The notes beneath the pieces were generated by a model that searched no databases, was not told the origin of the DNA, and saw only the letters and a list, made by a program, of their open reading frames with translations. A stretch of DNA of 64,000 nucleotides from NCBI GenBank assembly GCA_965213925.1, contig OZ243927.1:768001-832000 (forward strand), given 5' to 3'. The translations under genes were made by a program, and so were the position numbers. The stretch is from Trueperaceae bacterium. GTDB lineage: Bacteria > Deinococcota > Deinococci > Deinococcales > Trueperaceae. Of the stretch, positions 33,775 to 57,902 are shown in pieces; positions within the stretch are counted from its first letter, which is position 1, and each line of letters begins with the position of its first letter.

Positions 33775-34000
33775 TTATGCAACAGACGCGCGCGTCCGTC
33801 GCACAGCGGCTCCCATACCCCTCAGTACGAGTAAGCACTCTTCATCTTACTTAGCTCAACTATCTTGAAAGTGTGTCTTCCAATTCCACAGTTTTACAAG
33901 ACCCTCTCATCTTTAGGTTGCAGTTCACACCTTCTTATCAACCTCACCACGTGATAGATCGCACAGCCTGTAGGATTACTTACTCCTTAAGATAGGTAGC

Positions 34001-34876
34001 GTGACATTTACTACTCCTACTCACTCCTTCGCTGTCGCCTCTAGCGTTTCTCTCCCAAATTTGTTGAGTCGCATCTGCGTCCGCCCTCCTTACTTCGCGC
34101 TAAGCGACTTTAGACTCGAGGGGCGCTACTTGCGCGCGTCAGCCATTGCGGAAGCACCTCCTTTTTTGGAGCGAGCCCCGATGACATCCGCCGAGCTAGG
34201 CCGCCACGCCGCTATCGCCGGTTCGTGCCACGCCGCCCTCTCCCAAACAGACGACAAGCGGCGTTTTTACCTCGCCAATCATGCGACCTGCCACTACACT
34301 GCGAATAGCGTTCCTTACGGTACACCTGTGGAGTTCACCACCGAGGTCTCGTCGTTGACGCGCCGGGCGCTGCAGGTACGGGCTTGGGCGCTGGCTGCCG
34401 GGCGTCCTCTCGCGGAGTTCACCCTTTCTTACACCGTTCTAACAGAGCCTACCTTTTACCGACTCTTCCAGCAGCATCACCTACCGACTCACGAACAGAC
34501 CAACCCATACCGGAATCTTCTACAAACCTCCTATAAGCGTGGACCTGGCTGGGCCGAGCAGGAGATACCGAGCCTCCCCACTGAGGCGTGCGCGGGTCAC
34601 TTTGAGTCGTATCCGGCTTTACCCGTGGCGGTGCTGATGGGGCAACTTTCATACCTTGCTGGACAGGTCGTAGCGGACGAGCCGACACCCTTTCGAGTGG
34701 TTAAAGGGATAGTGGAAGCTGATACCCTTTTGTGGGCGCGAGAGCCTATCCGCTTCCGAGCCGATCGCGTCGAAGTAAACGGCGCGTTGCAGCATTACCG
34801 GTGCGCGGCATTCTCCCGCGACAAGCAGGTGGCTGGGATGGACCTATGGCTCGAGCTAGTTGACGAGCGCGTGTAG
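34001..34876 (+). CDS. Putative double-hotdog-fold enzyme (FabZ/AfsA-like)
   Basis: SAELGRHAAIAG helix in the N-half; AGHFESYPALPVAVL resembles FabZ GHFP..P.(M)PG in the C-half. Confidence 0.55.
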   Translation: MTFTTPTHSFAVASSVSLPNLLSRICVRPPYFALSDFRLEGRYLRASAIAEAPPFLERAPMTSAELGRHAAIAGSCHAALSQTDDKRRFYLANHATCHYTANSVPYGTPVEFTTEVSSLTRRALQVRAWALAAGRPLAEFTLSYTVLTEPTFYRLFQQHHLPTHEQTNPYRNLLQTSYKRGPGWAEQEIPSLPTEACAGHFESYPALPVAVLMGQLSYLAGQVVADEPTPFRVVKGIVEADTLLWAREPIRFRADRVEVNGALQHYRCAAFSRDKQVAGMDLWLELVDERV

Positions 34877-36817
34877 CAGTTTAACGGGCTCGGCTTGGGG
34901 TCGAAAAAGGTGTGCGAGCGCCTCGGCAGGGAGCGGCTTAGCGAAGAAGTACCCCTGACCTACATGGCAGCCGAGGTGTCGGAGGAGGTCGCGCTGCTCT
35001 TCGGTCTCAATACCCTCGGCAACGACCTGCAGGTCGAGGTGAACCGCGAGGCTCATGATGGCTTCGATAAGAGCCAGCGCGAACTGCGGGCCGACACGCG
35101 CTGCGCAGAGGTCTTTAACGAATGAGCGGTCGATCTTCACCGTATCGATGGGAAGGTCTTTGAGGTAGGCTAACGATGAATAGCCGGTGCCGAAGTCGTC
35201 GATCGCTAGGCTGACGCCCAGACGTTGGAGCTTGTCGAGTGTTGTAGCCACGCACCGTACACCTTGCATAACCGCGCTCTCGGTCAGCTCCAGCTCGAGA
35301 AAACCGGCCGGGAGCTGGTGCCGCTCCAGCGCCTCCACCACAGTAGTGTAGAAGTCAGGCTGAGCGAACTGAAGCGGTGACACGTTGACACTAACTCTAA
35401 AGTCAGCGAAGCCCTGCTGCGACCACACCTTAGCCTGGTGACACGCCTCGTCGAGTACCCAGCTGCCTATCTCGATGATAGCGCCGCTGCGCTCAGCACT
35501 AGGGATGAAGTCGGCTGGGGACACCCGCCCGAGTTGAGGGTGGTGCCAGCGGAGAAGGGCTTCGAGTTTGATTAGCCGACCGGAGGTCAGGTCATAGAGA
35601 GGCTGGTACTCTAAGTGAAGCTGGCGTTTCTGCACTGCCGACCGAAGATATCGCTCGATCTCACGCTGCTTCTCGAACTGCCCGTCTAAGTCGCCGAAGA
35701 ACTGGGCGACCCCGGCCTTGCCTAAGCGCTTCACCCGGTACATCGCACTGTCAGCATGTCGCAGCAGGGTAGCGCCATCTTGTCCGTGATCGGGAAATAA
35801 GCTCACGCCGATGCTGGCGGTGACATTCAGGTGCTGCCCACCGCAGTAGAATGGCTCGGCTAGCGTGCCTAGAAGTTTATGGGCGATTTGCTCAGCATGT
35901 TGGCGCTCACCGCTATATTCGACGATGCAGACGAACTCATCGCCGCTGATCCGAACGAGCAGGTCGCCGCGTCTCACTTCTCCTCGGAGCCTCTCGGCAA
36001 CTTGCTTGAGCAACTCATCTCCGGCTTCGTGACCTAACGTATCGTTGATGAGTTTGAATCCGTCGAGGTCGATGAAGAGCACAGCGGCTCTCATGCTATC
36101 GCGGCGCACACAAATGTCCTCGAGCCGTTCTTGTAACGTTTGCCTGTTGGGTAGTCCGGTCAGCGCATCCGTTCGCGCGAGCAGCTCAGCTGCCTCTACC
36201 CGAGTGTAGGCGCGGGTATAGTCCTCTTTGAAGTTGATGAAAGCTATGGTGAGCGCCAGCAACACAGAGTTCGCCAGGTTCATCTGCATGAGTGCGTAGA
36301 GGATACCCCACCAAGCCGTAGTCACGTATGCGCCGCTGAGCAGATGTGCCCCAGTATAGGCAGTGCACAGTGCAAGTACGGAAGTGGTAAAGATGACGGC
36401 TACCCGCCGCCCCAACTGCTGTCCGGGTAAGATAAATGAAAGCAGGTAAACGACGGGTACCCAATAAAACGTCTCGGTGAGCTGAGCTTGGAGATCGACA
36501 GACCCATTGAGAAAAAAAAGAAGCGCGGCAAGTTTCACGAGAAAGAAAAGGCTTGCGCCCGAGATAATACTGAGCACCACAAAGTGTAGAGAACGTTTGA
36601 GAAAAGCCAATACCCCTTCCAGCACGATTAGGACTCCCGCCATGAGAGCGTACCCCACGATATCGAGAGCCGTCGCCTGGTTGCTCGGATGCTCTAACAC
36701 CAAGCCGATGAGGAAAGCCGCCGCTCCGAACGGGATGGCAATGAGAAGCGCTTTGCGCCACCTCTGTTGGTACAGTCTGTCGCCTGGCGTGTAATCGTGC
36801 AGTGCCTGAAACATCAC
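34856..36817 (-). CDS. Membrane-bound diguanylate cyclase/phosphodiesterase (GGDEF-EAL)
   Basis: About 6 N-terminal TM segments; DALTGLPNR, SGDEF, EALLRW, IDDFGTGYSSL, VVAEGIE. Confidence 0.93.
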   Translation of the reverse strand: MMFQALHDYTPGDRLYQQRWRKALLIAIPFGAAAFLIGLVLEHPSNQATALDIVGYALMAGVLIVLEGVLAFLKRSLHFVVLSIISGASLFFLVKLAALLFFLNGSVDLQAQLTETFYWVPVVYLLSFILPGQQLGRRVAVIFTTSVLALCTAYTGAHLLSGAYVTTAWWGILYALMQMNLANSVLLALTIAFINFKEDYTRAYTRVEAAELLARTDALTGLPNRQTLQERLEDICVRRDSMRAAVLFIDLDGFKLINDTLGHEAGDELLKQVAERLRGEVRRGDLLVRISGDEFVCIVEYSGERQHAEQIAHKLLGTLAEPFYCGGQHLNVTASIGVSLFPDHGQDGATLLRHADSAMYRVKRLGKAGVAQFFGDLDGQFEKQREIERYLRSAVQKRQLHLEYQPLYDLTSGRLIKLEALLRWHHPQLGRVSPADFIPSAERSGAIIEIGSWVLDEACHQAKVWSQQGFADFRVSVNVSPLQFAQPDFYTTVVEALERHQLPAGFLELELTESAVMQGVRCVATTLDKLQRLGVSLAIDDFGTGYSSLAYLKDLPIDTVKIDRSFVKDLCAARVGPQFALALIEAIMSLAVHLDLQVVAEGIETEEQRDLLRHLGCHVGQGYFFAKPLPAEALAHLFRPQAEPVKLLHALVN

Positions 36818-37101
36818 AGAGTTACTATAGAGAACCGCTTCTTACAGAAGTCTTACTCGAGCTCTGTGCAATGAGCTGAAGAGAACTTACGCCAAAAGCC
36901 GACGCGCATATGGTTGTTGTTATTTGGTGAATGTTTAGGGGTTGGCAGCAGCCACTTAACAGTACCCATTCGGTGCATAGCCGCCGCAAGCTTTAACGTA
37001 AAAAGCGCTGCCTTATCTCTCCCGATTTTTCAAAACGGCTGCGCGACGAACGCGCGCGTTTCACGCAGAAGCTGTAAGCCGCGCCGTCCCGCGTGAACGC
37101 C

Positions 37102-38259
37102 CTACAAAGGTTCTAAACCCAGCGCCAGGCGTCCGCTCAGGCGCTGCTGCTGCTTCTCGGGCAGCGGGTGGAACTGCGCGCCGTGCACGTCGCGCAAGAG
37201 GCGCTCCAGGCCCAGGTCGCGGTAGTAGCCCCGGCCGCCGACCGCCTCGAGCGCCTTCTCGACTGTAGACACGCAGGCTCTAGCCGCGACCGTCTTGCGG
37301 ACGAGCGCCTTGCTCGCGTTCTCGGTGGTCGGCTCGAAGTCGTAGTCGTTGGTCGTGACGATCATGTCCCCTAGCGCCAGCTGCGCCGTGACGAGGAGGG
37401 TCTCCATCTCGCCGAGGAGGTAGGGGAGGTCGGGATCGCCCTGTCGCTTGCGCGCTTCGCGTTTAGCTATCTCGGCGGCGGCCTCGGCTGTCCCCACATA
37501 GGCCGACATGATGAGCGGCAGCGCGACACTCAGGATCACGTTCCAGACCCTGTGCCATTCCCCTGCGGGGCGCTTAAGCACGATGGCGTCGTCGGGAACG
37601 AAGACATCGTCGAGAATGACCGTATGCGAGCCCGTGCCGCGCATCCCCAGCACGCGCCAGTCTTCGCGGACGGTGACGCCCTCGGCTTTTAGAGAAACCG
37701 GGAAGTGCAGCACGCTGACGCCGTCCTCCGGGTCGTCATGGGGGGCGCTCGTTACCAGCACGTCTCCGGCTTGACAGCCGCTCGCGAACGCTTTGGTTGC
37801 GCTTACGCGGTAGCCCCCTTCGGTCCTCGTCACCTCGCCGTTCGAGGCGAGCCAGTCCCTGGCTCCGGTACTCACGAGCACGAGTTCTTGTTCAGCGACC
37901 CGCCTGAGCGTCCTCTCGCCCGGCTGCCCGCGTCGATACTTCCACACGTTAGCCGCGACCAGATGTTGGTGCATGGACAGCGCGAGCGCGGTCGAGGGGC
38001 AGTAACGCGCGAGGTTGCGCAACGCGGCGCACAGTTCGGCGTGCGACGCGCCGCCGCCCCCGAGTTCTTTGGGAACACCCGCCGAGAAGAATCTGTGCGC
38101 TTTCAGCTCGGCGTAGTTGTCTGCAACGAAGGTGTCGTTCTTGTCGTGGACGTCGGCCCTGGCTGCGAAGGTTGGCCCAAGCTCATGGACGGCGGCGAGC
38201 CAGTCGTATCGAGCTCCGTCGCTCCGGGCTCGTGGGGACTCGGTCACGGATGTATTCAT
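37102..38259 (-). CDS. Acyl-CoA dehydrogenase family flavoprotein
   Basis: GVPKELGGGG, STALALSMH, LGMRGTGS, LERLLRD. Confidence 0.9.
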   Translation of the reverse strand: MNTSVTESPRARSDGARYDWLAAVHELGPTFAARADVHDKNDTFVADNYAELKAHRFFSAGVPKELGGGGASHAELCAALRNLARYCPSTALALSMHQHLVAANVWKYRRGQPGERTLRRVAEQELVLVSTGARDWLASNGEVTRTEGGYRVSATKAFASGCQAGDVLVTSAPHDDPEDGVSVLHFPVSLKAEGVTVREDWRVLGMRGTGSHTVILDDVFVPDDAIVLKRPAGEWHRVWNVILSVALPLIMSAYVGTAEAAAEIAKREARKRQGDPDLPYLLGEMETLLVTAQLALGDMIVTTNDYDFEPTTENASKALVRKTVAARACVSTVEKALEAVGGRGYYRDLGLERLLRDVHGAQFHPLPEKQQQRLSGRLALGLEPL

Positions 38260-38375
38260 GGTGCCTCCTCAGTGGCTAAAGGGTGAGCGGGCGGACGCGC
38301 TCATGGGTCGCGTGTCGCGGTCGCCCTCGTGTCGGGCTGTCACTGAGCACTCTAGCGAAGCTTGACCTGTACGCC

Positions 38376-38394
38376 TAGTTCAGCAATAGAACTG
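38376..38394. promoter_or_regulatory. Probable HxlR-family operator
   Basis: TAGTTC-N7-GAACTG palindrome between the divergent regulator and target. Confidence 0.5.
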
Positions 38395-38441
38395 GTCATT
38401 TGCGAAGCGGAACATTATAGTGCGTAGAAAGAGGTGAAACC

Positions 38442-39146
38442 ATGACCAAATACGGCCAGTTCTGCCCGGTCACACGGGCGCTAGAGCTGCTCGGCGAGCG
38501 CTGGACGCTGCTGATCCTCCGCGATCTCCTACACGACGTGCATCACTTCAACGAGTTGTCGCGGGGGTTACCGCGGCTGTCGCGGGGCCTTTTAGCCAAG
38601 CGGCTGCGTCAGCTGGAGGAGGCGGGGCTGCTCGAACGCGAGGGCGACGGCAACCAGACCGAGTACCACCTGACGGAGGCGGGCGAGGCGACGCGCCCTA
38701 TCGTCCACGCCTTACTGATCTGGGGCGCTGAGCACGCGCTCGAGCAGCCTATGCCCGACGAGCTCGACCCGGTGCTGCTGATGTGGTGGCTGCGGCGGCG
38801 CGTCCGCGCGGAAGCCCTGCCGCCGGAGCGCACCGTGGTACAGTTCGACTTTCGGGGCGACCCGAGGAGCTACTGGCTTATCCTAGATCAACGTGACGTA
38901 TCGGTGTGCTTTGACCCGCCTGACTTCGCGGTAGACGTGTGGGTCGAAGCTGACCTGTCAGCCTTTTACCAGGTGTGGCTCGGGCAGGTTCCGTTTGAAA
39001 TAGCCTCAGAAAAAGGGCTTGTCGAGGTGTGGGCGCTACCCGCTTTGGAGCGCGCGTTCCCCAGTTGGTTCGCCTGGAGCCCGGCAGCAGAGGCGGTGCG
39101 GGCCGTGACGCACGCTGGCTCGTCCTACCCGGCGGGGGTCGGCTAG
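38442..39146 (+). CDS. HxlR family wHTH regulator with SCP2-like C-terminus
   Basis: YGQFCPVTRALELLGERWTLLILRDL, YHLTEAG. Confidence 0.92.
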   Translation: MTKYGQFCPVTRALELLGERWTLLILRDLLHDVHHFNELSRGLPRLSRGLLAKRLRQLEEAGLLEREGDGNQTEYHLTEAGEATRPIVHALLIWGAEHALEQPMPDELDPVLLMWWLRRRVRAEALPPERTVVQFDFRGDPRSYWLILDQRDVSVCFDPPDFAVDVWVEADLSAFYQVWLGQVPFEIASEKGLVEVWALPALERAFPSWFAWSPAAEAVRAVTHAGSSYPAGVG

Positions 39147-39189
39147 GCTACGTAATGGATTGGCGGAGCTGTAACTCTAACCTTGTTAT

Positions 39190-39292
39190 TGGTTCGTCTC
39201 GAAAGTCCGTTGCGAAGTGTGCTCGGTGCTTTTCGCGTTTCTGAAACAATCGAATGGTTATGAAAGTGACGAGAGATTTAGCGGATGAACCA
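39190..39292 (-). repeat. 103-bp inverted-repeat unit (reverse orientation)
   Basis: TTAT|TGGTTCGTCTCG...GCGGATGAACCA|TTAT. Confidence 0.8.
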
Positions 39293-39296
39293 TTAT

Positions 39297-39399
39297 TGGG
39301 TCATCCAGTTAATCCTTCACCACTCTCGCAACTGCTTAATCTCGCTAGCGACGAAAAAAGCGCGTCAGATGATTTGCAACGAACTTGCTGGATGAACCA
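39297..39399 (+). repeat. 103-bp inverted-repeat unit
   Basis: TTAT|TGGGTCATCCAG...CTGGATGAACCA|TCAT. Confidence 0.8.
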
Positions 39400-39586
39400 T
39401 CATGGGAGTTGCGCGCGCGTTTGTTGCAGAAAGCCTCAGATGTCTCCCGCAGCGTGACCGGGGTTGTTCAACGGCTCCCGAGCCAGGGGCGTTGGAAGCC
39501 TCTCGCACTGGGCGCGCAATAATCGTAGAGAGATTAAGATGTCAAAGGAGCACGTCCGTGCTTAGCGGCCCTGAGGAGTTCTGTTG

Positions 39587-40165
39587 ATGCTTAACCCTGA
39601 ACGCAACCCCGTTCCCGCCACCTTGGTGACCCCTGGTTTCCGACTGCACCGTCAGCGACCGGGCGACAACTTGAAAGACTACGGCGCTATCATAGCGTCC
39701 AAGGCGCTGCTACACGTCTGGAGCGACAGCCCCTGGCCTGAGGACGACTTCAGCCTTCAGAACGCTGAGGACCTTGCCGGACATATCGAAGACTTCGAGC
39801 GCGACTTGGCCTACGGCTTCAGCATCTTCACCTTGGGCGAGCGTCAACTGCTCGCGCTCTACTTCGACCCCGTCGCGCCCTTTTTGGACGACTACGCCGT
39901 TGACGAGGCAACAGCCGCCCGACTGTCCCAGTTCGACGTTCGGCTCGAGCACTGGCTCAGGCGCGGTACGAAGCGCGATTTTGAGGAAGATTTTGTGCAG
40001 GAGGTATTGGCTTGGCTAGAGAACGCCTGGTGGTTCCGCCGTCCCGTTTTCGGGTCGCGCCGTGCGATGAGGGCTCGCCGGGCGCTTTATGAAGCGCTAG
40101 GGTTAAGGGAAGTCGCCGTCCTTGACCACAGAGATGAGCCGCGGCGCTTTCACTTCCACGCCTAG
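39587..40165 (+). CDS. GNAT-like (RimJ/RimL-related) protein
   Basis: VPATLVTPGFRL, DYGAI, WPEDDFS...DL..H..DF pattern; GAGGAG RBS. Confidence 0.6.
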   Translation: MLNPERNPVPATLVTPGFRLHRQRPGDNLKDYGAIIASKALLHVWSDSPWPEDDFSLQNAEDLAGHIEDFERDLAYGFSIFTLGERQLLALYFDPVAPFLDDYAVDEATAARLSQFDVRLEHWLRRGTKRDFEEDFVQEVLAWLENAWWFRRPVFGSRRAMRARRALYEALGLREVAVLDHRDEPRRFHFHA

Positions 40166-40353
40166 CCGGGCGCGTCATTCTGTAGGAGGAAAGCCCGAAG
40201 GAGAGCGTCTGCCGGACAGTGCACCACTCGACCCCCCTTATGTAGGCAGCGGTTCTTGGTCTTTTCGCGCTTGACCTTGTTGTGCGACAGATGCGCGCGT
40301 TAGTTACAGTAAACCGGCTTACGCATAAGAATTTTGAATACGTCCCTGTAGCT

Positions 40354-42174
40354 CTATAGAGCCTTCGGCTCATAATCTGGCGACTGATGGCGAAAATACG
40401 TATTGTAAAGCTCTGCGTAGTGGCCGCCTTGCGCCAAAAGCCCCTCGTGCGTTCCCTCTTCGATCACGTCACCCTTTCGCAAGACGAGGATGCGGTCGGC
40501 AGTACGAATCGTCGAGAGGCGATGCGCGATGACGATAGCGGTGCGCTCGCGTAGAACAAGCTCCAACCCCTCTTGAATCTGCGCCTCGGTGAGTGGGTCC
40601 ACGCTGGCAGTGGCCTCGTCTAAGATCAAGATGCGCGGGTCTTGGAGCAGCACTCGCGCCAAGACCACGAGTTGCCTCTGTCCCATCGAAATGCCACGTC
40701 CCCCCTCACCCACGTCGGTGTCCAAGCTTTGCGGCAGTGCCGCCAACCAGTCGCCCCCGCCGATGCGCTCGGCTACCGCGATGACGGCCTCGTCACTCGC
40801 CGAGGGGACACCGTAGCGGATGTTGTCACGCACCGTGCCACCGAACAGAAAGGGTGTTTGCTGAACAATTCCCAAGCAGCGGCGGTAGCTCGGGAGGTCG
40901 AAGCTGCGAATGTCGCGCCCACCGATAAGGAGCTGTCCACCTTGAAACTCATAAAAGCGTGCCACGAGTTTGCCGAGGCTCGACTTACCCGCGCCGGTAT
41001 GACCCACGAGCGCTACCGTTTCGCCCGCCCGAATGGTCATGTCGAAGTTCTGCAACACCTGCTCCTGAACAGTATAGCGAAAGTCCACCCCGCGAAATTC
41101 GATGTGTCCAGCGAGGTTAGTTACTTTGACCGCGCCTGTCTGCTTCACTCTCGGTTCTGCGTCTACCAGGGCAAAAACGCGCTCGCTCGCCGCGAGCCCT
41201 TGCTGGAACTGGCTCCAGAACGAGGCGATGCTCGTTAAAGGAAACCAGAAGAGCGCTACCGCCTCGACGAATAAAAACCACTGACCCGGCGTGACTGCGC
41301 CCGCTAAGACGCTCTGCCCACCGAAGTAGACAATTAGCGCCGTGCCGACCCCAGCAATCGTCCCAAGGATCGGGAAGATAGCGCTGAAGACCAAGCCCTG
41401 CCTCAAGGAGAGCGCGTACGACTGCGCGTTGACGCGGCTGAATTCGTCGTAGATGGTGCGCTCGCGCCGAAACGCCTTCGCCACCGAGATGCCCGTGACC
41501 GACTCCTGCACGTTCGCATTGACCTCCGCAACGACTCGCCGTGCTTGCTGCGTGGTTGAGCGGGCGACGTGGCGAAAGGCGAGCGCCGCCGCGACGATGA
41601 AAGGCGCGATAATGAGCGCGATCAGTGCGAGGCGCACGTTGATGTAAAAGAGGACGCCGACGATGATTACCACTTGCAAAAGTTGACTCATCAGGTTAAG
41701 CGTAAGCGTTACGACCGTAGCGAAGTCCTGGGTGTCCGAGGTGACGCGGCTCACCACGCGCCCGGTGGAGAATTCGTCGTAGAAGGACATGTCGCGCTCT
41801 AAAATGGCGTCGAAGGCATCCTTGCGCAAGTTCAGCACCACATTGCCGACGGCTTTGGCGGTGTACCACTGCCGCAAAAAGTTGAAAGTCCAGGCGAATA
41901 CGCCCGCCAGCAAGACCGCCACGAGCAGCCAGCCCGTCTGCCGCCATAGCCCTGTACCGAGGCTAGTGGGGTCCGTCCCGAGCGCGTCCAGGCTTCTCGC
42001 TAAGAGAACGGGCAACAGTGCGCCCATGAGCGCATCTAAAAAGATCATCGCTGAGACGAAGACCATCAGCCCGGTGTAGGGTCTGAAGTAACGGAGGATG
42101 CGGCGCAGCAGTTGTGCGTCCGAGTACTCGCGGTCGTACGCCTCCGCTGCAACGCCGTCCATCAAAAATCCCAT
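40354..42174 (-). CDS. ABC exporter (TMD+NBD), consensus-site half
   Basis: GHTGAGKS, ISMGQRQ, LILDEATASVD, IAHRLST. Confidence 0.95.
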   Translation of the reverse strand: MGFLMDGVAAEAYDREYSDAQLLRRILRYFRPYTGLMVFVSAMIFLDALMGALLPVLLARSLDALGTDPTSLGTGLWRQTGWLLVAVLLAGVFAWTFNFLRQWYTAKAVGNVVLNLRKDAFDAILERDMSFYDEFSTGRVVSRVTSDTQDFATVVTLTLNLMSQLLQVVIIVGVLFYINVRLALIALIIAPFIVAAALAFRHVARSTTQQARRVVAEVNANVQESVTGISVAKAFRRERTIYDEFSRVNAQSYALSLRQGLVFSAIFPILGTIAGVGTALIVYFGGQSVLAGAVTPGQWFLFVEAVALFWFPLTSIASFWSQFQQGLAASERVFALVDAEPRVKQTGAVKVTNLAGHIEFRGVDFRYTVQEQVLQNFDMTIRAGETVALVGHTGAGKSSLGKLVARFYEFQGGQLLIGGRDIRSFDLPSYRRCLGIVQQTPFLFGGTVRDNIRYGVPSASDEAVIAVAERIGGGDWLAALPQSLDTDVGEGGRGISMGQRQLVVLARVLLQDPRILILDEATASVDPLTEAQIQEGLELVLRERTAIVIAHRLSTIRTADRILVLRKGDVIEEGTHEGLLAQGGHYAELYNTYFRHQSPDYEPKAL

Positions 42175-42214
42175 CAGGTGACCTCCCTAATCATCGTGGT
42201 CCAGCCACCGCGCC

Positions 42215-45340: not shown

Positions 45341-45387
45341 GGTTCTTCCTCCTAAGTTCTTCCTCATCTGACCCTACAGCGAATCCT

Positions 45388-47296: not shown

Positions 47297-48271
47297 ATGA
47301 ATAAGACCAAAGCGGCAAAGACATCTATAGACCGGGTGACCGGAGAGAAACGTTCACTCCAGAGGCTTACACAGGACATTACCTACTTGCGTACGCGCAT
47401 CGTCAATCTCTACTTCGTAGGCGAACCCAGAGCTCAGAGCGGCGAATGGGTGCTCGTCGACGCCGGTTTGCCCTGGTCTGCCGGAAGGATAGTAGGGGTG
47501 GCCGAAGAACTCTTTGGGCGCGGCAGCCGACCTGCGGCCATCGTGCTCACCCACGGACACTTCGACCACGTCGGCGCGCTGCCCGAACTCGCCCGGCGGT
47601 GGGAGGTGCCGGTCTGGGTGCACCCCCTCGAGCTCCCCTACCTCACGGGCCGCTCGAGCTACCCGCCCGCTGACCCCGGCGTTGGGGGCGGTTTGATGGC
47701 GCGCCTCGCCCCGCTCTACCCGCGCCACCCTATCGACCTGAGGGGGTATGTGCGATCCCTACCGGCCGACGGGACAGTGCCGCCGCTTCCCGGCTGGCGC
47801 GCCCTTCACACGCCCGGTCACAGCCCCGGTCACATCTCCTTGTTCCGCGAGTCGGACCGGGTGCTCCTTGCCGGTGATGCGTTCACTACCGTTAAGCAGG
47901 AGTCGGCCCTGGCAGTGCTGAGACAGCGCCAACAGGTCCACGGCCCGCCCGCCTACTTCACCATCGACTGGCAGAAGTCTCGGGAGTCGGTGGTACGGCT
48001 CGCCGCGCTAAAGCCGTCGCTGGCGGCGACCGGGCACGGCCTGCCGATGAGCGGCGAGCGGCTGTCGCGTGAACTCGAGGGGCTGGCACAGAAATTCGAC
48101 CGGTCTGCAGTGCCCGCACGTGGACGTTACGTTCGCCGCCCGGTCCTCACAGATGAGCGCGGCGTGGTCGCGGTGCCGCCCCCTAGAGGGACTTCCTACG
48201 TCTCCTTGGGTCTCAAGATGGTGCTCCTCGGGGTTGCGCTCGCCGCCGTACGCAGGCGTGTTCATTTTTGA
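47297..48271 (+). CDS. MBL-fold metallo-hydrolase with C-terminal membrane tail
   Basis: LVDAG, THGHFDH, HTPGHSPGH, LAGDA, TGHG. Confidence 0.92.
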   Translation: MNKTKAAKTSIDRVTGEKRSLQRLTQDITYLRTRIVNLYFVGEPRAQSGEWVLVDAGLPWSAGRIVGVAEELFGRGSRPAAIVLTHGHFDHVGALPELARRWEVPVWVHPLELPYLTGRSSYPPADPGVGGGLMARLAPLYPRHPIDLRGYVRSLPADGTVPPLPGWRALHTPGHSPGHISLFRESDRVLLAGDAFTTVKQESALAVLRQRQQVHGPPAYFTIDWQKSRESVVRLAALKPSLAATGHGLPMSGERLSRELEGLAQKFDRSAVPARGRYVRRPVLTDERGVVAVPPPRGTSYVSLGLKMVLLGVALAAVRRRVHF

Positions 48272-48565
48272 GCCGCGCTGGACGTCCGGGGTTTATGACC
48301 GCCGCAGGTCGTAAATAGAAGCCGGACCTCGCGAGAAGAGGCGGCTGGGAAGCGCGCCGACCAGCCCGTAGCGTGCCGCAGCCCGTGGTTTGTGGGTAAG
48401 GGAGAGGTAGAACGCTCAAAGTAGCGGCGACGGTGAACTCGTCGCCAAAGAGCCAAGGCGAAACCGCTATAACCCCCCCGACTAGGTCAGTCTCAGAGGC
48501 TACTTCGGGACGTCAGGTCCAGAGCCGTCACTTGGGTGTTACCCTTGGTACGAGGGGGAATAAGT

Positions 48566-50350: not shown

Positions 50351-50404
50351 CGTTTACGTTTCTAAGGCGGGAGGTAGAGGGTCTAGTCGTGAAAGGGGTA
50401 AGCA

Positions 50405-51421
50405 GTGAGCGTAAAACTAAAGAAGCTAGAAGGTCAAGTAATCGTCATCACGGGCGCGTCCTCGGGCATCGGGCTGGTAACGGCGCGGCTCGCGGCGGGG
50501 CGGGGCGCGCGGCTGGTGCTGGCGGCGCGGAGCGAGGCGGCGCTCCGGCAGCTGACCGAAGAGCTGAACCGAAGCGGCGCTCAAGCCGTCTACGTCGTTT
50601 GTGATGTGAGTAAGCGCGACGACGTGCGCGAAGTCGCGCGGACCGCTCAGGCGACCTTCGGCGGCTTCGACACCTGGGTGAATAACGCGGGCGCGTTCAT
50701 CTTCGGCAAGCTCGAGGAGGTGCCCGTAGAGGACATGCGTAAGCTCTTCGAGACGAACGTCTGGGGACTTGTCTACGGCTCGCTCGAGGCTGTGAAACAC
50801 CTTAAAAGGCGCGACAAAGAATATGGTGGCGCTCTAATCAACATCGGCAGCGTCTTGTCTGAGCGCGCCATCTTGCTGCAGGGCGCTTACAGCGCGTCCA
50901 AGCACGCCGTCAAGGGCTTTACCGACGCGCTGCGCATGGAGCTGGAGAACGAGGGTGCGCCCGTGTCCGTCACGCTGGTCAAGCCGAGCGCCGTCGACAC
51001 GCCCTACCCGCACCACGCGAAGAACTACATGGACGCGGCGGCGGAGGTGCCGCCGCCCGTCTACGCGCCGGAAACCGTCGCCCGCACCATCTTGTATTGC
51101 GCGGAGCACCCGAGGCGTGACGCCTACGTCGGCTCGGGCGGCAAGAACCTGGCCGCGCTCAGCCACTATGCGCCGAGCTTTTTGGACAAGGTGATGGAGA
51201 CGGTGTTTGTGAAGCAGGAGCGCAAAGACCAGCCGCCCCTCCCCCTGGAACAAAACAGCTTGGATAGACCAGCAGGCAAGCTGGAGGAGCGCGGCGGCTA
51301 CGAGGGGTTAGTCATCGGCTCGAGCCCCTACACCGCCGCCTCGCTACGTCCGGGGCTCGCCGGGATTTTGCTCGCCGGTGCGGGGCTCGCTGCCGCGCTA
51401 TGGTACGCGGTGCGGCGGTAA
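50405..51421 (+). CDS. SDR family oxidoreductase with C-terminal membrane tail
   Basis: TGASSGIG, WVNNAG, YSASK. Confidence 0.92.
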   Translation: MSVKLKKLEGQVIVITGASSGIGLVTARLAAGRGARLVLAARSEAALRQLTEELNRSGAQAVYVVCDVSKRDDVREVARTAQATFGGFDTWVNNAGAFIFGKLEEVPVEDMRKLFETNVWGLVYGSLEAVKHLKRRDKEYGGALINIGSVLSERAILLQGAYSASKHAVKGFTDALRMELENEGAPVSVTLVKPSAVDTPYPHHAKNYMDAAAEVPPPVYAPETVARTILYCAEHPRRDAYVGSGGKNLAALSHYAPSFLDKVMETVFVKQERKDQPPLPLEQNSLDRPAGKLEERGGYEGLVIGSSPYTAASLRPGLAGILLAGAGLAAALWYAVRR

Positions 51422-51449
51422 ATGGAGGCTGCTACTAATAGCATTTGCA

Positions 51450-51479
51450 GGGGTCTTTGACAGGTGTGTCAAAGACCCC
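51450..51479. terminator. Hairpin after SDR
   Basis: GGGGTCTTTGACA-GGTG-TGTCAAAGACCCC perfect stem. Confidence 0.65.
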
Positions 51480-51707
51480 CGAGCGGATGCGTTCACGAAG
51501 TCGCCAGTGGGAACGCAGTGACGCGAAGCCTTGTACCAATGAACGCTCTCAGTGTGTCAATAACTGATGCAAATGCTGTCAAGAGGCGAAAGGCAAGGAG
51601 CGCTGCTGAAGCCTGCTGCACCGCGTAACGAAACTGCACAACAAAGAGGCGACTAAACGCTCGCCGCCGCATAAGGACCGCTCGACGCTGTGAATAAAGG
51701 AGACGCG

Positions 51708-52232
51708 ATGAACCCAACGCAACTCAGCCGCGAACTGCGCAACCACAAAACTCCCGACTTGACCCGCCGCCGCTGGATCGTCGGCTTAAACCTCTTGGGT
51801 GTCTCGATGGGCCAGCTCGTCTCGGCCTACCAGACGGGCCTCATCCCCCGCCTGCCCGACCCGCCCGGCAAGCTCGGTGAGGTTTTTAATGCGACCAAGG
51901 TGGACGCTTCGGACTACGCCTACAAGCGCTACCGCAGCCCCGACGGGGTGGCGATGGTGACGACCTACGCCGTCACGACCTGGCTCGCGGGCGCGGGCGG
52001 CGAAGACCGGGCGAACGAGACACCGCTGCTGCCCATCGCGATGGGCGCGAAGCTCCTCTACGACGTAGGCACGACCTTGCAGCTGGCCCGCGAGGAGTGG
52101 GAGGAGAACGGGGCGTTTTGCCAGTACTGCCAGGTGGCGACGCTCGCCTCGGTCGTCTCTGCTGCGCTCGCTGCGCCCGAAGTGTGGCGGGCGGTGAAGG
52201 CGCTGCGTGACAAGTCCGGTCAGTCGTCGTAA
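51708..52232 (+). CDS. Vitamin K epoxide reductase family protein
   Basis: YQTG...LPDPP, VDASDYAY, PDG, FCQYC; AAGGAG RBS. Confidence 0.8.
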   Translation: MNPTQLSRELRNHKTPDLTRRRWIVGLNLLGVSMGQLVSAYQTGLIPRLPDPPGKLGEVFNATKVDASDYAYKRYRSPDGVAMVTTYAVTTWLAGAGGEDRANETPLLPIAMGAKLLYDVGTTLQLAREEWEENGAFCQYCQVATLASVVSAALAAPEVWRAVKALRDKSGQSS

Positions 52233-52244
52233 GCAACCTCGAGT

Positions 52245-53062
52245 TTTAGAGGAGACGTTGGGCTAGGTAGACGAGCGGTTCCGGGTGAACGTGGAGGGCG
52301 TGACGAACCTCTGTAAGCTCTTCTCCTGGCCCGAAGGACTACCGAGCCACTTGCGCCCCTTCACGTCGGGGCAGATTCAAGAAGGGGGCGAACTCGGCTA
52401 CAGCCTCTCGCACGCTTACGGCGCAGCCTTCGACAACTCCGAGCTGATCGTGGCGTGCGTGGTGGGTGACGGCGAGGCGGAGGCGGGGCCCTTGGCGGCC
52501 GCGTGGCACTCGAACAAGTTCCTAAACCCGGCTAGGGACGGCGCGGTTTTGCCCATCCTGCACCTTGACGAGCATAAGATAGGCGGCTTGATCCTCTTCG
52601 GGCGGATGAATCATGGGGAGCTGCAGAACCTCTTCACGGGCTACGGCCACCGCGTGCACTTCGTGGCGGGCGACGAGCCGGAGGCTGTTCACAGGTCGCT
52701 TTGGGGAACGCTGAATCGATGTTATGAAGAGGTCGAAGCGGCGCGAAAGGAAGCTAGGTCCAATCCAGACTCTAAACCCACCTTGCCGCTGATCGTCTTG
52801 CGCACGCCGAAAGGGTGGACCGGTCCTAAGACACTGGCGGGTCAATCCGTCGAAGGGACCTTCCGCTCGCACGGCACGCCGCTGTCTGACCCTAAAGACG
52901 ACGAGGAGTTTGAGACGCTCAAGACGTGGCTCGAGAGCTACGACCCTGCGTCGTTCAACGAGGTGGGAGAGCCAGACGAGGCAGTGCGGTCTCTATTGCC
53001 CGAATCTGACAAGAGGTTAGGCCGCAATCCGCACGCGAACGACGGTGCGCTCCTAGTCCCTC
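52245..53062 (+). pseudogene. xfp: Phosphoketolase internal fragment
   Basis: EGGELGYSLSHAYGAAFDN, GDGEAE, HSNKFLNP, LRTPKGWTGP; both ends missing, 3' end cut by an IS21 remnant. Confidence 0.88.
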
Positions 53063-53863
53063 TGGACCGCGAGCCAGTCTTGGCTGTTCTGGCTGGCGGT
53101 GACTTCGGCGTAGGTGTAGTTGCTTGCGCCTAAAACAGCTACGAAGACTTGTCCCTGTTGCACCTCACCACTTTGAGGATCGGTGATCGGTAACGTGACC
53201 CCGGCGTAGTCAACGAACAGTTTCTCGCCTGCAGTATGGGACTGCCGCATGATGACGCCTTGCTCGCCCAGCTAGACTCTGTAGCAAACGGTGAACGTCG
53301 AATACTCGTACCCCGTAGGATGCTGCACTTTATATTCCTGCCACAAGAGCAGCAGGGTGACCCCTTTGCGCTGCTTTTCCTTATGGACGTATTCCCAATC
53401 GGGTTCAGGACGTGACGCTTCGCCTTTCACGGCAAACAGCCTGGCTTCTAATGCCGCATCATCCCACTCAGCACTGAGTGGCCACGACAGCCCAGCGGCT
53501 TCGGCGCGGCGCAGATAATTGCTGACGCTGCCCTTGCTGAGCGCACAACTCTGAGCAATCTGCCGCTCGCTCAGCTCGCACGCATATCTCAACCTTAGAA
53601 TCTCTCGGACCTTCCTCAAAAGAGTCCTCAACAGCAGGTAGCATCTGGTCATAAACACAGCGGCTCAGTAACGGCATGATACGCCCTGTTGAAGACTCTT
53701 TGACGCTCGCTTTCTCGACATGCTCTATCTTGCCGGGCATGTCTCGGGAGTGTCTCGCGTCGCTACGCTGAGGTGGTCAAGGTTGCTAAAACACTGGTCA
53801 ATTTATGTAAATTGACCGCCCACGTATCGTAAAGTCAATGGTCAAATTGGGCTGAAATACGCA
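53063..53863 (-). mobile_element. IS21-family remnant (left end plus 5' istA, disrupted)
   Basis: End TGCGTATTTCAGCCCAATTTGACCA at 53863; [40 protein letters not shown]. Confidence 0.88.
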
Positions 53864-54240
53864 AACGCTGACAAGTAAAGGAGAGGTCCAGGTACGGGTG
53901 TACAAACGCGCCCTTATTCTGCTGCTAGCAGATGAGGGACTAAAAGACGCTGAGATCACCTCACGAGTAGGCGTGAGCCGAGTAACGGTGAGCCGCATTC
54001 GGCAGCGCTACGAAGTGGAGGGTTTGGGGGCGGTAGCGGAAAGGGCGAGACCGGGGCGTCCGAGTATCTTCAGTGGAGAGACGATCGAAATTGAGTTCTC
54101 CGCCCTCGCTAGGCAATGTCTCAATAGACGTATCCCTTGTCAAAAGCAACTAGGGCGTGAAGTCTTGGCTTGGGTCGACGCTCGTAATGCTGAATGCATC
54201 TCCGTCACCTGGCAGTTCTCTATCCAGAGTGCGCGTGACA
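53864..54240 (+). mobile_element. IS630-family remnant with internal deletion
   Basis: RALILLLADEG...RPGRP HTH joined directly to C-terminal IEIEFSALARQCLNRRI...WQF. Confidence 0.8.
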
Positions 54241-55957
54241 CTTAGGTGTAGCGGGAAGCTCAAAGCGGATTACGTTTAAGATATCCCCTTTGAATTTTGT
54301 CGTCTCAAAAGAGATGTGCAGATACTTCTCAGCTAAAGCGATGAATAGCCTCGGGAAGAGTTCGTCATCGTCTCCTACCCGCCGCCGCAATTCATCGACG
54401 ACGACGCTTTGCATCAAGGACCCGCTGCTGAAAGAGGTAGGCTTAAACCCGAAGTCCTTAACGAGAATGTGGAGCACTTTAGGTAGATTTTCGGGCTGCT
54501 TCTCCAGATAATCAAAGAGAAGATTGAGCGCTATGCGGAAGTTGTCCGGGCTCGAGTACACAAACGCACTTAGTATGCTTAAAATTGATGGTCTGGGGAT
54601 GCTCGAGTCAGGTTTTGTTTTCAAGCTCGAGAGGTCTATGCCTTTCGGTTCCAAGCGGTCGATGTAGGCTTGAGCAAAAAGCAATGTCTCAGTTTTCTTC
54701 ACGAACCAGAAGGTATTTACGAGGTACAGCAAACCTTCCTGATCGTTAGCTTCCTCAAATGCCTTCCACGCCTCATCCACGCATGGACGCATCACCTCCA
54801 CAACAGCTTCGGCATCGAAAGCGTTGAGGATAGGGTTGATCATATCGATCAGCTTGCGCTCCTGCTCGGGGAAAAAGTGAGTCAGAAGCGCCGAGAAGTC
54901 GAGCGTCCGCTCTTTGAAGAAAGCGAGATAGGTGATGTACGTGGCGAGCACCTGGTCTGAGAACCGGAGCACCTCGTTTTCGTACATATCCATCACCTCT
55001 AACTCGTGAAGGCGTTGAGCCGTGCTCCAGAACGCTTCCGGTGTGATGCCGAAGGCTGCGACGATACTATGCATCTGTTCCGCATTTGCCCTGTCAACGT
55101 ATCTGAAGAAACCGACAATGCCAGCGACTCTCAGTAAGTCTCGGTTCCCTAAGCTCTCAAGGTCCTTACGGATGGAGCTGAAATATTCGTCGTAGAGTGC
55201 GGACACGTCGAGGATGCTTTGGAGGGTGTTCTCACGTTTCGCTACTTGCGCCGCCATGACGGCTAGGCGCGGGTTGTCCTGCGCTATGTTGATGATGTGA
55301 TCAAGATATGAAGGGTGAGTAATTTCAAACTCGTCTTCCAGTAGTTGCCTTATCTATGTATCGTCGAAGGGTCCAAGTCCGACCTCCGTCCGCTCACCGT
55401 AAATCTTTACAGCTTCGCGCACTTTCTCTAATGCGTAATCGCGAACAGTGACCACGACCTTGAATTTCTGATCTACCCTTTGAGTATGGAGAAGTTGGAG
55501 CACGTAGTCAAAGCCGCTCACGCGGTTCGCGTCATCGACGAAGATGAGGTACTCCCCCGAGTCGGAGAAATGAACCCGTAAATCTTCGAAAAGGTCCGCC
55601 CCTCGGTTATAAATACAACGCACGTCGTAGCTCGAGTAACTCCCCACAAATTTACGACAAGCTTCCAGAGCAAGGCTTGACTTCCCTATGCCTGCAGAGC
55701 CAGAGATGATAACGATGTCGGTATGCACAAGCGCGTTTAGAACTCGCTGCAACTCCTCGTCCCGGAAGAGAAAATCGGTGTCGAGTGGCGTGGCAAGCGT
55801 ATTTCTATTGTAGGCGCTGACGAACTCATCCGATTCGACAATCTGACCGGTATCGACTTGAACGCCCAAGAAGTCTCTGGCAAGACCGGGGAAGTTCTGG
55901 TAGAGATCAAAAGCGATGCGCTCAAGGTTAAAGAAGTTTACATTGACGCCTTCGTCT
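54241..55957 (-). pseudogene. N-terminal/central fragment of the large STAND-like NTPase
   Basis: Walker A GSAGIGKS, Walker B LIFVDDANR, VVTVRDY, DNPRLA; one in-frame TAG at 55354-55356; 5' cut by an IS, 3' cut by the IS630 remnant. Confidence 0.85.
54248..54734 (+). repeat. Direct repeat copy B
   Basis: Matches 28230-28716. Confidence 0.92.
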
Positions 55958-57186
55958 GGTACTGCTCCAAAAATTTCTTCAAGCGGCTAAGCGAGGGTTT
56001 GCCGCTCCAATAAGTGTAGCCCAGGGGGTGGTGTAGTCCAAAGCTGAATGCCGCCGCTTGCGGTTATACCAGCAGTGAAAGTCAGGTAGAGCCTGTTGAA
56101 CTTCGGCGAGTGATCGCCAGTCATGCCTAAAAGCGAACGAGTATTTGTAGGTGCGGTTGAGCCTTTCAAGGATGCCCATACCGCCTTTTTGGCTGACTTT
56201 GCATCTGACCCACGCACCGTGGCGCAAGCAAGCATTTTGAAACACCTCGCCGGTGAAGTCCGAGCCGTCGTCGCTCTGGACGAGGATAGCGCTGCGGATA
56301 CTCTGCGAGCGCAACACGGCAATGCCTTCGTCGAGGGCTGCTTTGGCTAAGTGCATCGACAGACCCCTAACGGCTTTGCTCGCTAGCACGGTACGCGGTT
56401 GCACGTCCAACACGTGATAGACCCAGCACACCCCATCAGCGAGCGATAAACGGGTAGCGTCAATCTGCACCCGTCTCCCAGCAGGCCACTCGGGAGGCGG
56501 CACGACCTGCGGCGAGGGGTTTCTCGTCTTGCGCGGTTGTGGTGGGTTTAGCTCGAGGTCTCCAAGTAGCTGGCGCACACGGTGCAGACCTATTTGCTCC
56601 CCTTGATCCCGCAACTCCTGATAGAGAAATCTGTAGCCATAAGTCGGGTGTTGCAGCGCTACGTGCTTGACGGCTTCGCGCAATTTGTCCCCTTCTTCTT
56701 CGCGAGCACGCCTTGTAGCACTGCTTTTTTCAAAGTCACGTAGCTGCCGGTATCCCGGCATACTGGGCAAAGCGTCTTAAACTCAGCTCCGGTCGGCTCT
56801 GACGTAGCGCTAACAGCTCAGCCATACTCAGAGCCGCCGCACTTTTCGCGAAATATCTAGCTCCAACTCTTTCTCAGCCAAAATGCGCTTCAAGCGGTCA
56901 TTCTCGCGCTCTAAGGTTACCTGTCCGTTATCCGGCTTGTTCCCAGCGAGCCTGGCACGCCCGCCTTCGAGAAAGTTTGCCTTCCAGGTGTGAATCTGGC
57001 TCTTATTGACCCCATGCTGTCTGGCTGCCTCAGCCACGCTGACCTCGCCTCGCAGCACCGATAACACGGTGGTCTCTTTGACCTCTAGGCTCCAGGACTT
57101 TCGTTGCTTGCCCATCTTCTTCCTCCAAGTTCTTCTACCCTCGCATAATTCGGGTTGAGTTTGGAAGAAATCGCTGGAGCACTACC
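55958..57186 (-). mobile_element. IS element (IS3-like orfA/orfB organisation), orfB frameshifted
   Basis: IRs GGTACTGCTCCAAAAATTTCTTC / GAAGAAATCGCTGGAGCACTACC; orfA 56828-57115 HTH; orfB DDE (QIDAT, QSD, ERLNRT, RRHSAL); no target duplication. Confidence 0.85.
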
Positions 57187-57572
57187 GGTACACCTGTCCT
57201 CGCCACGTCAGCGACGTTCCGGGTGACGAGCGTCAGATTATGCGTGTGTGCTGTTGCTGCTAAGAGGCTGTCTATGACAGGTAAAGGGTCGGGTGCGTTG
57301 AAGCTGCCCCAGGTCTCTGCTACTTCAACCGTGATCAGCAGGATTTGGTCGCGGTAGTCGCGTTTGAGCGTCCCAAGCCACGCATCATAAACAGCAGCCT
57401 GAGCTGGATCGCGCTGCCTGAGTCGCTCGACCCCCTGTCGTATTTCGCCGACGACCAGCACGCTCAAGAAGAGTTCGTCGCTGCGAACGGAGGCAAACCA
57501 GGCCTTCACTCCCTCGTCGCCCCGAGGCTTACGCACTTCGGAGAGGATGTTCGTGTCCAGCAGATAGCTCAA
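57135..57572 (-). CDS. vapC: VapC (PIN) toxin, C-terminus replaced by IS sequence
   Basis: YLLDTNILSE, SVLVVGEI, IDSLLAATA, LVTRN. Confidence 0.9.
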   Translation of the reverse strand: MSYLLDTNILSEVRKPRGDEGVKAWFASVRSDELFLSVLVVGEIRQGVERLRQRDPAQAAVYDAWLGTLKRDYRDQILLITVEVAETWGSFNAPDPLPVIDSLLAATAHTHNLTLVTRNVADVARTGVPVVLQRFLPNSTRIMRG

Positions 57573-57811
57573 AACTCGATCACACGACTGCGCTCGTCGG
57601 AGCGTTCGATTTCTAAGGTACTGAGGTCAGGTCCGCTCGTGAGGAAGCTTTTGAAATCCTCCTTGCTGCCGCTCAGCTTGCGATACGCCTCAGCCGATAC
57701 GACGACGGCGACCTCCTCGCCGTGGCGCGTGGCGACCTGCGGACCCTCGTCCTGGGCCTGTTTGATAAGCTGACTTAATTTCTGTTTCGCCTCTTGCAGT
57801 TGCCACACCAT
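57569..57811 (-). CDS. Phd/YefM family antitoxin
   Basis: WQLQEAKQKLSQLI, GPQVATRHG..VAVVVS; 4-nt overlap with the toxin. Confidence 0.92.
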   Translation of the reverse strand: MVWQLQEAKQKLSQLIKQAQDEGPQVATRHGEEVAVVVSAEAYRKLSGSKEDFKSFLTSGPDLSTLEIERSDERSRVIEF

Positions 57812-57902
57812 ACTGACCTCCTACCTAGTCTGTCTAGATTATAGCAGAAGCATCTGACAATACCTTGGGCTTCTGCAAAAGACGCGCGCGTCTTACGCAT
57901 AA

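Follow-up and report, generated by a model that had tools for sequence, protein, structure and literature searches.

We analyzed a stretch of 64,000 nucleotides (the window, C1:768001-832000) from the genome of a Trueperaceae bacterium (G000; 4.75 Mb, 58% GC, 6 contigs, 96.9% complete). The window contains the left end of a 96-kb island (C1 802-897 kb) in which groups of genes, here called modules, are separated by copies of a short symmetric site. This island has 24 such sites, and the seven in the window delimit six modules. The same island carries, 51.8 kb past the window end, a gene for a 288-aa Xer-like tyrosine recombinase. On the basis of the comparisons presented below, we think it probable that this dedicated recombinase and its 32-bp site constitute a cassette-exchange system. 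The sites and modules of the window are as follows (positions within the window):

Site 1, 33775..33806, centre between 33790 and 33791: both arms good, TTATGC-AACA-GACGCG/CGCGTC-CGTC-GCACAG (the slash marks the centre)
Site 2, 37039..37070, centre between 37054 and 37055: right arm good; left arm with intact inner box and weak outer box (4/6)
Site 3, 39400..39431, centre between 39415 and 39416: right arm good, left arm degraded; homology to module 3 of a related species (G002) begins exactly at the centre
Site 4, 40280..40311, centre between 40295 and 40296: left arm good; right arm with intact inner box, outer box 4/6
Site 5, 44253..44284, centre between 44268 and 44269: right arm good; left arm with intact inner box and off-consensus outer box; an insertion sequence (IS)-type end lies 16 nt from the centre
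Site 6, 46404..46435, centre between 46419 and 46420: the weakest of the seven (nhmmer E 0.2); left arm good, right outer box 4/6
Site 7, 57871..57902, centre between 57886 and 57887: both arms good
Module 1, 33807..37038: an open reading frame (ORF) at 34001-34876 (plus strand, without Pfam match) and a GGDEF-EAL protein gene at 34856-36817 (minus strand)
Module 2, 37071..39399: acyl-CoA dehydrogenase, 37102-38259 (minus strand), and HxlR regulator, 38442-39146 (plus strand)
Module 3, 39432..40279: a single ORF, 39584-40165 (plus strand, without Pfam match)
Module 4, 40312..44252: two ABC transporter genes with fused membrane and ATPase domains, 40354-42174 and 42215-43987 (minus strand)
Module 5, 44285..46403: WYL-domain regulator, 44372-45367 (minus strand), and short-chain dehydrogenase/reductase (SDR), 45424-46329 (plus strand)
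Module 6, 46436..57870 (11.4 kb): two metallo-beta-lactamase-fold genes, an SDR, a VKOR gene, a truncated phosphoketolase N-domain, a STAND NTPase fragment, an IS3-type transposase pair (55979-57115) and a Phd/PIN toxin-antitoxin pair (57135-57811)

Sites 1 and 7 (33790 and 57886) have two good arms and match on both strands; the other five keep a 12-bp core and have one arm with a degraded outer box. Two of the genes in module 6 are fragments (52285-53133 and 55354-55869): a 282-aa ORF that matches only positions 108-363 of the phosphoketolase N-domain, and a 171-aa piece of a STAND NTPase. The IS3 copy in this module (55957-57189) is 99.9% identical to C1:2630703-2631935.

An earlier note on this DNA had reported seven copies of a 23-bp motif with an identical 12-4-7 spacing. 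A direct check of the sequence found all seven at their coordinates and with the quoted letters, and all lie between ORFs that have family support (Pfam labels were judged at E ≤ 0.001), in agreement with the description of the motif as intergenic. A relaxed pattern (GCGCGC-N7-GCA-N-A) matched 9 times in the window, at 7 loci, where chance would give 0.72 matches; none of 100 dinucleotide shuffles of the window attained 9. Two weaker copies placed by the note at -36908 and -39169 bear no resemblance to the motif and were not seen in a genome-wide profile search at E ≤ 10. As to its gene labels, Pfam supported the GGDEF-EAL, acyl-CoA dehydrogenase, HxlR, WYL, SDR and both ABC assignments, whereas the ORFs labeled hotdog and GNAT had no Pfam match. 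No Rfam family reached its gathering score anywhere in the window.

The 23-mer proved to be the right two-thirds of a symmetric 32-bp site, TTSTGCG-n-s-ARWY-GCG/CGC-RWYT-s-n-CGCASAA. Its geometry is 13-6-13, with two 13-bp arms, each composed of an outer box TTSTGC(G) and an inner box A-R-W-Y, placed around the self-complementary GCG/CGC. This geometry is typical of tyrosine-recombinase core sites, where strand exchange between any two sites needs an invariant overlap region and the arms may vary. A site profile was built from 30 two-sided copies, and the 74 sites that it detected at E ≤ 0.01 provided 148 half-sites. Read towards the centre, these have one consensus common to both arms, T-T-S-T-G-C-G-n-s-A-R-W-Y-G-C-G, and each of the three central bases is retained in 145-147 of the 148. 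Of 102 half-sites with the strict pattern, CGC comes next in 87, and CGC together with RWY in 80. Likewise, when the 132 genomic matches of the relaxed motif were collected with their flanks, most loci were matched on both strands, 11 bp apart. This symmetry changes the view taken in the earlier note that orientation alternates strictly and that modules are enclosed by inverted pairs, as in the pdif modules of Acinetobacter. As both arms follow one consensus, the sites do not alternate between XerC and XerD orientations in the way of pdif, nor do they form inverted pairs. Two of the seven window sites match on both strands, the strand assigned to a copy being that of its better-preserved arm, and the modules are the intervals between consecutive sites.

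Some loci have sites that look decayed or inactivated (C1:2468159, 2712120, 2911259 and 225066), in which a good half-site is joined to a centre that is 2 bp short or changed at a point (e.g., GCG/CGT... or GCG/CAC...). A variant site with CCGGGCC in place of GCGCGC at the centre (TTATGC-AAYG-AAC-CGGGCC-RTT-CG...) was found at C1:847640-847680, adjoining an IS end. The same variant centre occurs in one named relative (L030), ~100-140 bp upstream of the recombinase gene, where it replaces the normal site.

In the whole genome, the profile census by nhmmer E-value gave 91 loci at E ≤ 0.3. Of these sites, 89 are on contig C1, where 84 lie entirely between genes in spite of a coding fraction of 0.815; another 4 touch a called ORF, and a single one is inside an ORF. 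They are not spread chromosome-wide but form 10 clusters, 7 of them multi-site, and 2 further sites are on contig C6. The multi-site clusters are:

C1 211-246 kb, 7 sites
C1 802-897 kb, 24 sites
C1 2669-2712 kb, 14 sites
C1 2896-2913 kb, 5 sites
C1 3198-3233 kb, 6 sites
C1 3400-3490 kb, 26 sites
C1 4518-4523 kb, 3 sites

The modules between these sites contain 1-13 called genes in both orientations, and many include regulators. Further along the 802-897 kb island the cargo comprises MarR, ArsR and TetR regulators, PhoD and metallophosphatases, redox enzymes, several toxin-antitoxin pairs, and an operon for ArsR, a low-molecular-weight phosphatase, an aquaporin and an oxidoreductase. Two-gene modules consisting of an RHH antitoxin-like gene and an HNH endonuclease gene were found at C1:211324-212239 and C1:2686053-2686968, which are in two islands and 100% identical, and also at C1:885401-886147; these may represent an uncharacterized toxin-antitoxin type that is frequent as cargo. 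The borders of the islands could not be defined through synteny with congeners, as the hits (66-91% identity) were scattered over diverged and rearranged congener genomes.

Three segments duplicated within the genome reveal where the exchanged units end. C1:896492-897345 and 3462440-3461587 are 100% identical over 854 bp, with ends at -7/+3 and -3/+7 from the site centres. C1:211322-212257 and 2686971-2686036 are 100% identical over 936 bp, with one end at -3 and the other at +18. The third, a 1775-bp segment shared by C1:875011-876785 and 3214494-3216268, ends at +7 from the centre in both copies. In all three duplicates the module-side half-site is common to the copies and the neighbor-side half-site is different. 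Half-sites therefore travel with modules, and the sites are chimeras.

We also compared 244 kb of G002 arrays (57 sites) with the present genome, which yielded 71 alignments (≥300 bp, ≥80% identity). Among the 142 ends of these alignments, 22 were within 8 bp of a G002 site centre, compared with ~0.6 expected from site density, and 17 were at centres in both genomes. When the G002 sites were shifted by 200, 500 and 1000 bp as a control, the number of alignment ends at the sites was 0, 0 and 0. A homolog in the present genome was found for 16 of 49 G002 modules, and none of the 7 pairs of adjacent G002 modules with homologs is adjacent here; their members map to islands megabases apart and in either orientation. 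Module 3 of the window (39412-40279) recurs alone in G002 at 93% identity, beginning on one side exactly at the centre and having unrelated neighboring half-sites. A variant of module 3 with the same end points (39412 and 40279) is present in contigs of sequencing run X2; it is not an independent case, as X2 may be from the same or a similar organism. In a small comparison, alignments of site-bounded modules were 86-96% identical, as against 72-89% for the left flank of the window and G002, which hints at recent exchange of the modules. Judging from these alignments, the sites are very likely the points at which modules are exchanged. The proposal of the earlier note that they bound independently mobile cargo modules acted on in trans is thus strongly supported by the duplicated modules, the congener, the scattering of modules and the recombinase linked to the sites, which is described below.

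The window itself encodes no recombinase, as the earlier note had observed and as searches for the tyrosine and serine families confirmed. A search of the genome with PF00589 gave 10 matches, and the two best were paralogs located inside islands, 80% identical at the DNA level:

Recombinase gene 1, C1:883816-884682: 288 aa, in the window's island, 51.8 kb past the window end
Recombinase gene 2, C1:3232339-3233202: the paralog, in another island

The protein scores 134 bits with PF00589, and the SAM-like N-domains PF13495 and PF02899 are above their cut-offs. Its catalytic R, K, HxxR, H and Y motifs align with those of a solved XerC-like protein (PDB 4a8e), which is among its nearest solved structures together with XerD (1a0p) and XerA (5hxy). 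The protein aligns end to end with Xer models, with NCBIfam scores below the curated cut-offs (XerC, 207 vs 335; XerD, 200 vs 330; XerA, 197 vs 220). Integron-integrase models score far lower (TIGR02249, 112.1 bits in two stretches vs a cut-off of 265; NF011946, 65 vs 435).

Each recombinase gene is site-bounded and is followed by a different toxin-antitoxin pair (VapBC or RES/Xre). In 5 of 5 profile-tested loci from 4 genomes, a site centre is found ~105 bp upstream of the recombinase gene and a second site 1.0-1.9 kb past the gene end. Inspection by eye of the upstream DNA of five named close relatives showed the site in three, the CCGGGCC-centre variant in one and no site in one. Just upstream of the start codon there is also a conserved hairpin, GACCTCCG-N14-CGGAGG followed by a T-run (L001:3757-3793, i.e., C1:883757-883793; same place in L029-L033). 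Its 3' arm holds the GGAGG ribosome-binding sequence, its minimum free energy is -23.5 kcal/mol (z -2.8), and its sequence shows almost no variation. This hairpin might act as a terminator that shields the recombinase gene, or it might serve in the control of translation.

The occurrence of the recombinase follows that of the sites. Among 41 relatives, the strict palindrome was found at 42 loci in the present genome, at 20 and 38 in two congeners and at 8 in a member of one other genus. A single perfect palindrome in G017 looked chance-like, and the backwards control gave 0 in all 41. Recombinase orthologs (87-92% identity) are present in exactly the four genomes with at least 8 strict sites; the next hits are at 50% (partial) and 31-34%. 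A survey of 364 genomes from the phylum detected the full 32-bp pattern in 7, which belong to one family and three genera, the backwards control again being 0; one of these 7, G275 (1 site), has a recombinase ortholog of 80% identity. The pattern had 0 matches in a viral contig collection and was found on 1 short contig of a metagenome contig collection.

In a search of species genomes, relatives of the recombinase with at least 80% identity occurred only in Trueperaceae. The next closest proteins belong to Alicyclobacillus, Sulfobacillus and Ferroacidibacillus (52-61%), followed by Bacillus and Paenibacillus (41-49%). The loci of these Bacillota relatives (41-61%; L034-L075, up to 12.8 kb each) had no recurrent palindrome family, only terminator-like hairpins, and one of them had an N-run. 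We also observed that the recombinase is 87-89% identical between two genera (G005, G001 and G002 vs G000), compared with 66-82% DNA identity of shared cargo genes in the region. This suggests that the system moved between genera or that it is under unusually strong constraint.

A mechanism can be proposed from these data. Two recombinase subunits would bind each site and exchange strands within the central 6 bp, GCGCGC. A module carries one half-site at each end, so that recombination between its flanking sites would excise it as a circle containing a single, complete hybrid site, and the chromosome would be resealed with a complete site of its own. The circle could then re-enter at any other site, and inversions between sites would also be allowed. 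As the centre is symmetric, a module could enter in either orientation. Several islands would thus arise from self-contained modules, namely operons that have regulators of their own, transporters, genes for detoxification and toxin-antitoxin pairs. Such modules would be rearranged inside the genome and would pass between related species. At sites 3-6 of the window, the good module-side arms of modules 3 and 5 are paired with the degraded neighbor-side arms of modules 2, 4 and 6, which would fit an entry of modules 3 and 5 at weak sites. It is likely that the island-borne recombinase is the enzyme that acts on the sites, and most likely that this enzyme is a dedicated Xer-like paralog and not the host Xer pair, the grounds being linkage and co-occurrence.

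Several observations weigh against this interpretation. On its other side, the homology between module 3 and its G002 counterpart breaks off at the outer border of the window's site, a position where G002 lacks a site altogether; other homology ends lie at +13 to +18 from a centre, likewise not at the centre itself. All sites have just the 12-bp core in common, so that any process acting between sites would place junctions there; the case for site-specific recombination is built on the geometry of the sites and their invariant centre, on the occurrence of half-sites in pairs and on the recombinase linked to them. Two genomes, G273 (3 full sites) and G274 (1 site), have no recombinase match at E ≤ 1e-20, and sites can therefore exist, at low number, without the gene. 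All genomes with sites come from just three genera in a single family and hence represent few independent lineages. The island recombinase (200-207 bits with the XerC and XerD models) is no less XerC/XerD-like than the one other full-length Xer-like gene of the genome (169-180 bits, below cut-offs), so its separate role rests on distribution and position. ORFs beyond the window were called with a home-made caller, which gave a coding fraction of 0.815. Assembled contigs of X1 and X2, which are from one sample, bridge the sites at 37054, 40295 and 44268 as in the window, with no listed joint at any site and all joints short-sided. Such contigs cannot reveal rare excised or inverted forms; this result is neutral, and recombination is deduced rather than observed.

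An alternative is that the sites are genuine and are used by the host chromosomal Xer or by another recombinase, the island gene being cargo or an enzyme of its own module. This could account for the sites in G273 and G274, neither of which has an ortholog of the island recombinase, and for the 5 of 7 multi-site islands without a recombinase of their own. Acinetobacter dif modules are reported to use the host XerC/XerD, and the present genome does hold another full-length Xer-like gene as well as a fragment of one. However, relatives having only ordinary Xer-like genes (31-34% identity) are siteless, with 0 sites in 36 of the 41 genomes, and one consensus in both arms fits a single recombinase better than a XerC/XerD heterodimer. 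The location of a site close upstream of the island gene in every profile-tested locus also argues for a specific connection. With regard to another recombinase, a serine recombinase gene with an internal TAG stop (C1:4516002-4516304) lies ~2 kb from the 4518-4523 kb site cluster, but it is the broken one of only 2 serine recombinase matches in the genome. We regard this alternative as unlikely, and a dedicated enzyme encoded in the islands as the better explanation.

The palindromes might also be intergenic repeats similar to repetitive extragenic palindromic (REP) sequences or terminators, spreading as mobile hairpins or together with operons, with the shuffling of modules as a by-product of breakage or recombination at short homologies. 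Indeed, the sites are intergenic and GC-rich, and convergent gaps are over-represented among them: 31 of 73 sites are in convergent, 31 in tandem and 11 in divergent gaps, whereas convergent gaps are 17% of all gaps, and 93 of 146 site flanks face 3' gene ends. Junctions at the only shared core would be expected from any mechanism, and the presence of a whole site in one genome and its absence from the other at one end of module 3 resembles an element that is gained and lost. However, a hairpin-selected element should show excess complementarity of its arms, and the arms are independent: across the variable 7 nt, they are identical at 3.59 positions on average, compared with 3.63 after shuffling, and 1174 of 2000 shuffles attain the value observed. 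Hairpin pairing is therefore not what keeps the site conserved as a unit. No T-run follows the sites in the flanks of the genomic matches, and the 11 divergent gaps do not fit terminators. PF01797 (Y1, RAYT) had 0 matches in this 96.9% complete genome, the sites are confined to islands, a 12-bp shared core is short for homologous recombination, and all four site-rich genomes have a site-linked recombinase. We thus consider a repeat of this kind improbable as the origin of the module boundaries and favor site-specific exchange.

A further possibility, which we judge very improbable, is that the modules are non-autonomous transposons with abutting 16-bp terminal inverted repeats and that the palindromes are end-to-end junctions made by a transposase. 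Every module does end in inverted half-site copies whose terminal bases are invariant like transposon tips, and IS elements are frequent in the islands. Yet solo half-sites do not exceed background in the genome (15, compared with 18 for the backwards control), abutting ends are neither separated by spacers nor accompanied by target duplications, the neighboring side always keeps at least the inner box, and the termini of the island IS630-type elements are unrelated to the half-site. A telomere-resolvase-type palindrome is implausible given ~90 chromosomal copies, although no search aimed at a resolvase gene was made. A promoter or operator motif, which the flanks had suggested at first, was rejected.

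The IS630-type elements just mentioned are found next to several sites. An IS of this type, 1336 bp long and with at least 4 genomic copies (e.g., C1:3228876-3230211), has termini GGTTCRTCC... and codes for a helix-turn-helix and DDE transposase in two frames. The related features of the window are:

33674..33773, minus strand: miniature element of ~100 bp bearing terminal inverted repeats of the IS630 type, one end of which starts exactly 17 nt from the site 1 centre (the extension in alignment A1)
39298..39398, minus strand: miniature element of ~101 bp, of the same kind, 17 nt from the centre of site 3; 98% identical to C1:2896417-2896521
44215-44252: IS630-type end adjoining site 5
57904..57945, plus strand: IS630-type end GGTGCATCC..., which starts 17 nt from the site 7 centre and for which a partner in inverted orientation was not found within 3 kb

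Genome-wide, ~16 of 182 half-sites have such an end 17 nt (16 nt in one case) from the centre, abutting the outer box. This constant spacing looks like target-specific insertion of the element at the sites. Unrelated to the sites is a ~100-bp repeat at 33497-33605 of the window, with dozens of copies (72-92% identity) in two congeners and several in the present genome, which is probably another miniature mobile element.

To our knowledge, only two systems by which bacteria bank and reshuffle genes at short sites have been well described, integrons and the dif modules of Acinetobacter; at the level of abstracts, we found no description of the present system in the literature. The closest known system is most likely that of the dif modules, from which it is nevertheless distinct. 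In both, short Xer-type sites built around a 6-bp centre delimit modules that hold one or a few genes, both carry toxin-antitoxin, regulator and resistance-type cargo shuffled among replicons, and here too modules recur in different contexts with their ends at sites. Both are also targeted by IS elements at a fixed distance, here by IS630-type ends 17 nt from the centre and there by the IS1202 family, which is reported to insert 5 bp from the XerC arm (PMC10132070). However, pdif sites are 28-bp, 11-6-11 and asymmetric, with distinct XerC and XerD arms; they are dif-like, alternate in orientation, are found mostly on plasmids and are thought to use the host Xer pair. The present sites have neither distinct arms nor alternating orientation; they are 32-bp, 13-6-13, symmetric and chromosomal, occur in ~90 copies grouped in ~8 islands and are linked to their own recombinase gene.

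Integrons, including clusters of attC sites lacking integron integrases (CALINs), are likewise chromosomal banks of exchangeable gene units with tyrosine-recombinase-type sites and toxin-antitoxin cassettes. They too have IS elements targeting their sites, IS1111 elements being known to target attC. Yet none of the three hallmarks of an integron was found here, namely a recombinase of the IntI family, attC-type sites, and promoterless cassettes in one orientation behind attI and the cassette promoter Pc. The recombinase falls far below the IntI model (112 vs 265 bits), and there is no attI or common promoter. Whereas attC sites are imperfect hairpins of ~57-141 nt conserved in structure, the sites described here are 32 bp long, conserved in sequence and not hairpin-constrained. 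Integron cassettes are mostly promoterless single genes in one orientation; the present modules are multi-gene, lie in both orientations and have their own regulators.

The single-recombinase systems XerS/difSL, XerH/difH and archaeal XerA/dif resemble the one described here in that one Xer-family protein acts on a near-palindromic site adjoining its own gene. They differ in having one site per chromosome, used for dimer resolution, as against ~90 sites bounding variable modules, and the present recombinase gene is duplicated within variable arrays and adjoins toxin-antitoxin genes. In Cre/loxP and Flp/FRT, a single recombinase recognizes 13-bp inverted arms around a short centre, and an asymmetric 8-bp spacer sets the direction. 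In a comparison of layout alone, the arms and the total length (32-34 bp) are alike, whereas the 6-bp centre here is self-complementary and encodes no direction. REP sequences and REPINs with their RAYT are also short, intergenic, GC-rich palindromes in tens to hundreds of copies, but here there is no RAYT gene and no hairpin covariation, and the sites cluster in islands and occur at homology breakpoints.

On balance, we lean towards the view that a self-contained and direction-free system, consisting of the 288-aa recombinase and the symmetric 32-bp site, builds several islands (~320 kb in total) and moves operon-sized modules among Trueperaceae species. It would then be a third platform beside integrons and dif modules, with its own site-targeting IS and with recombinase modules guarded by toxin-antitoxin pairs. 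If so, it would represent a chromosomal cassette system in another phylum, Deinococcota, with a different site architecture and a recombinase of its own. It would also account for the way in which these environmental bacteria assemble their variable islands. If active, the small recombinase and its 32-bp symmetric site could serve as a genetic tool. In this system the cargo would be whole regulated operons (ars-type, phosphatase, transporter, redox and toxin-antitoxin) and not promoterless single genes. The system also suggests that cassette platforms employing ordinary Xer-like enzymes are more widespread than integron-centred searches show.

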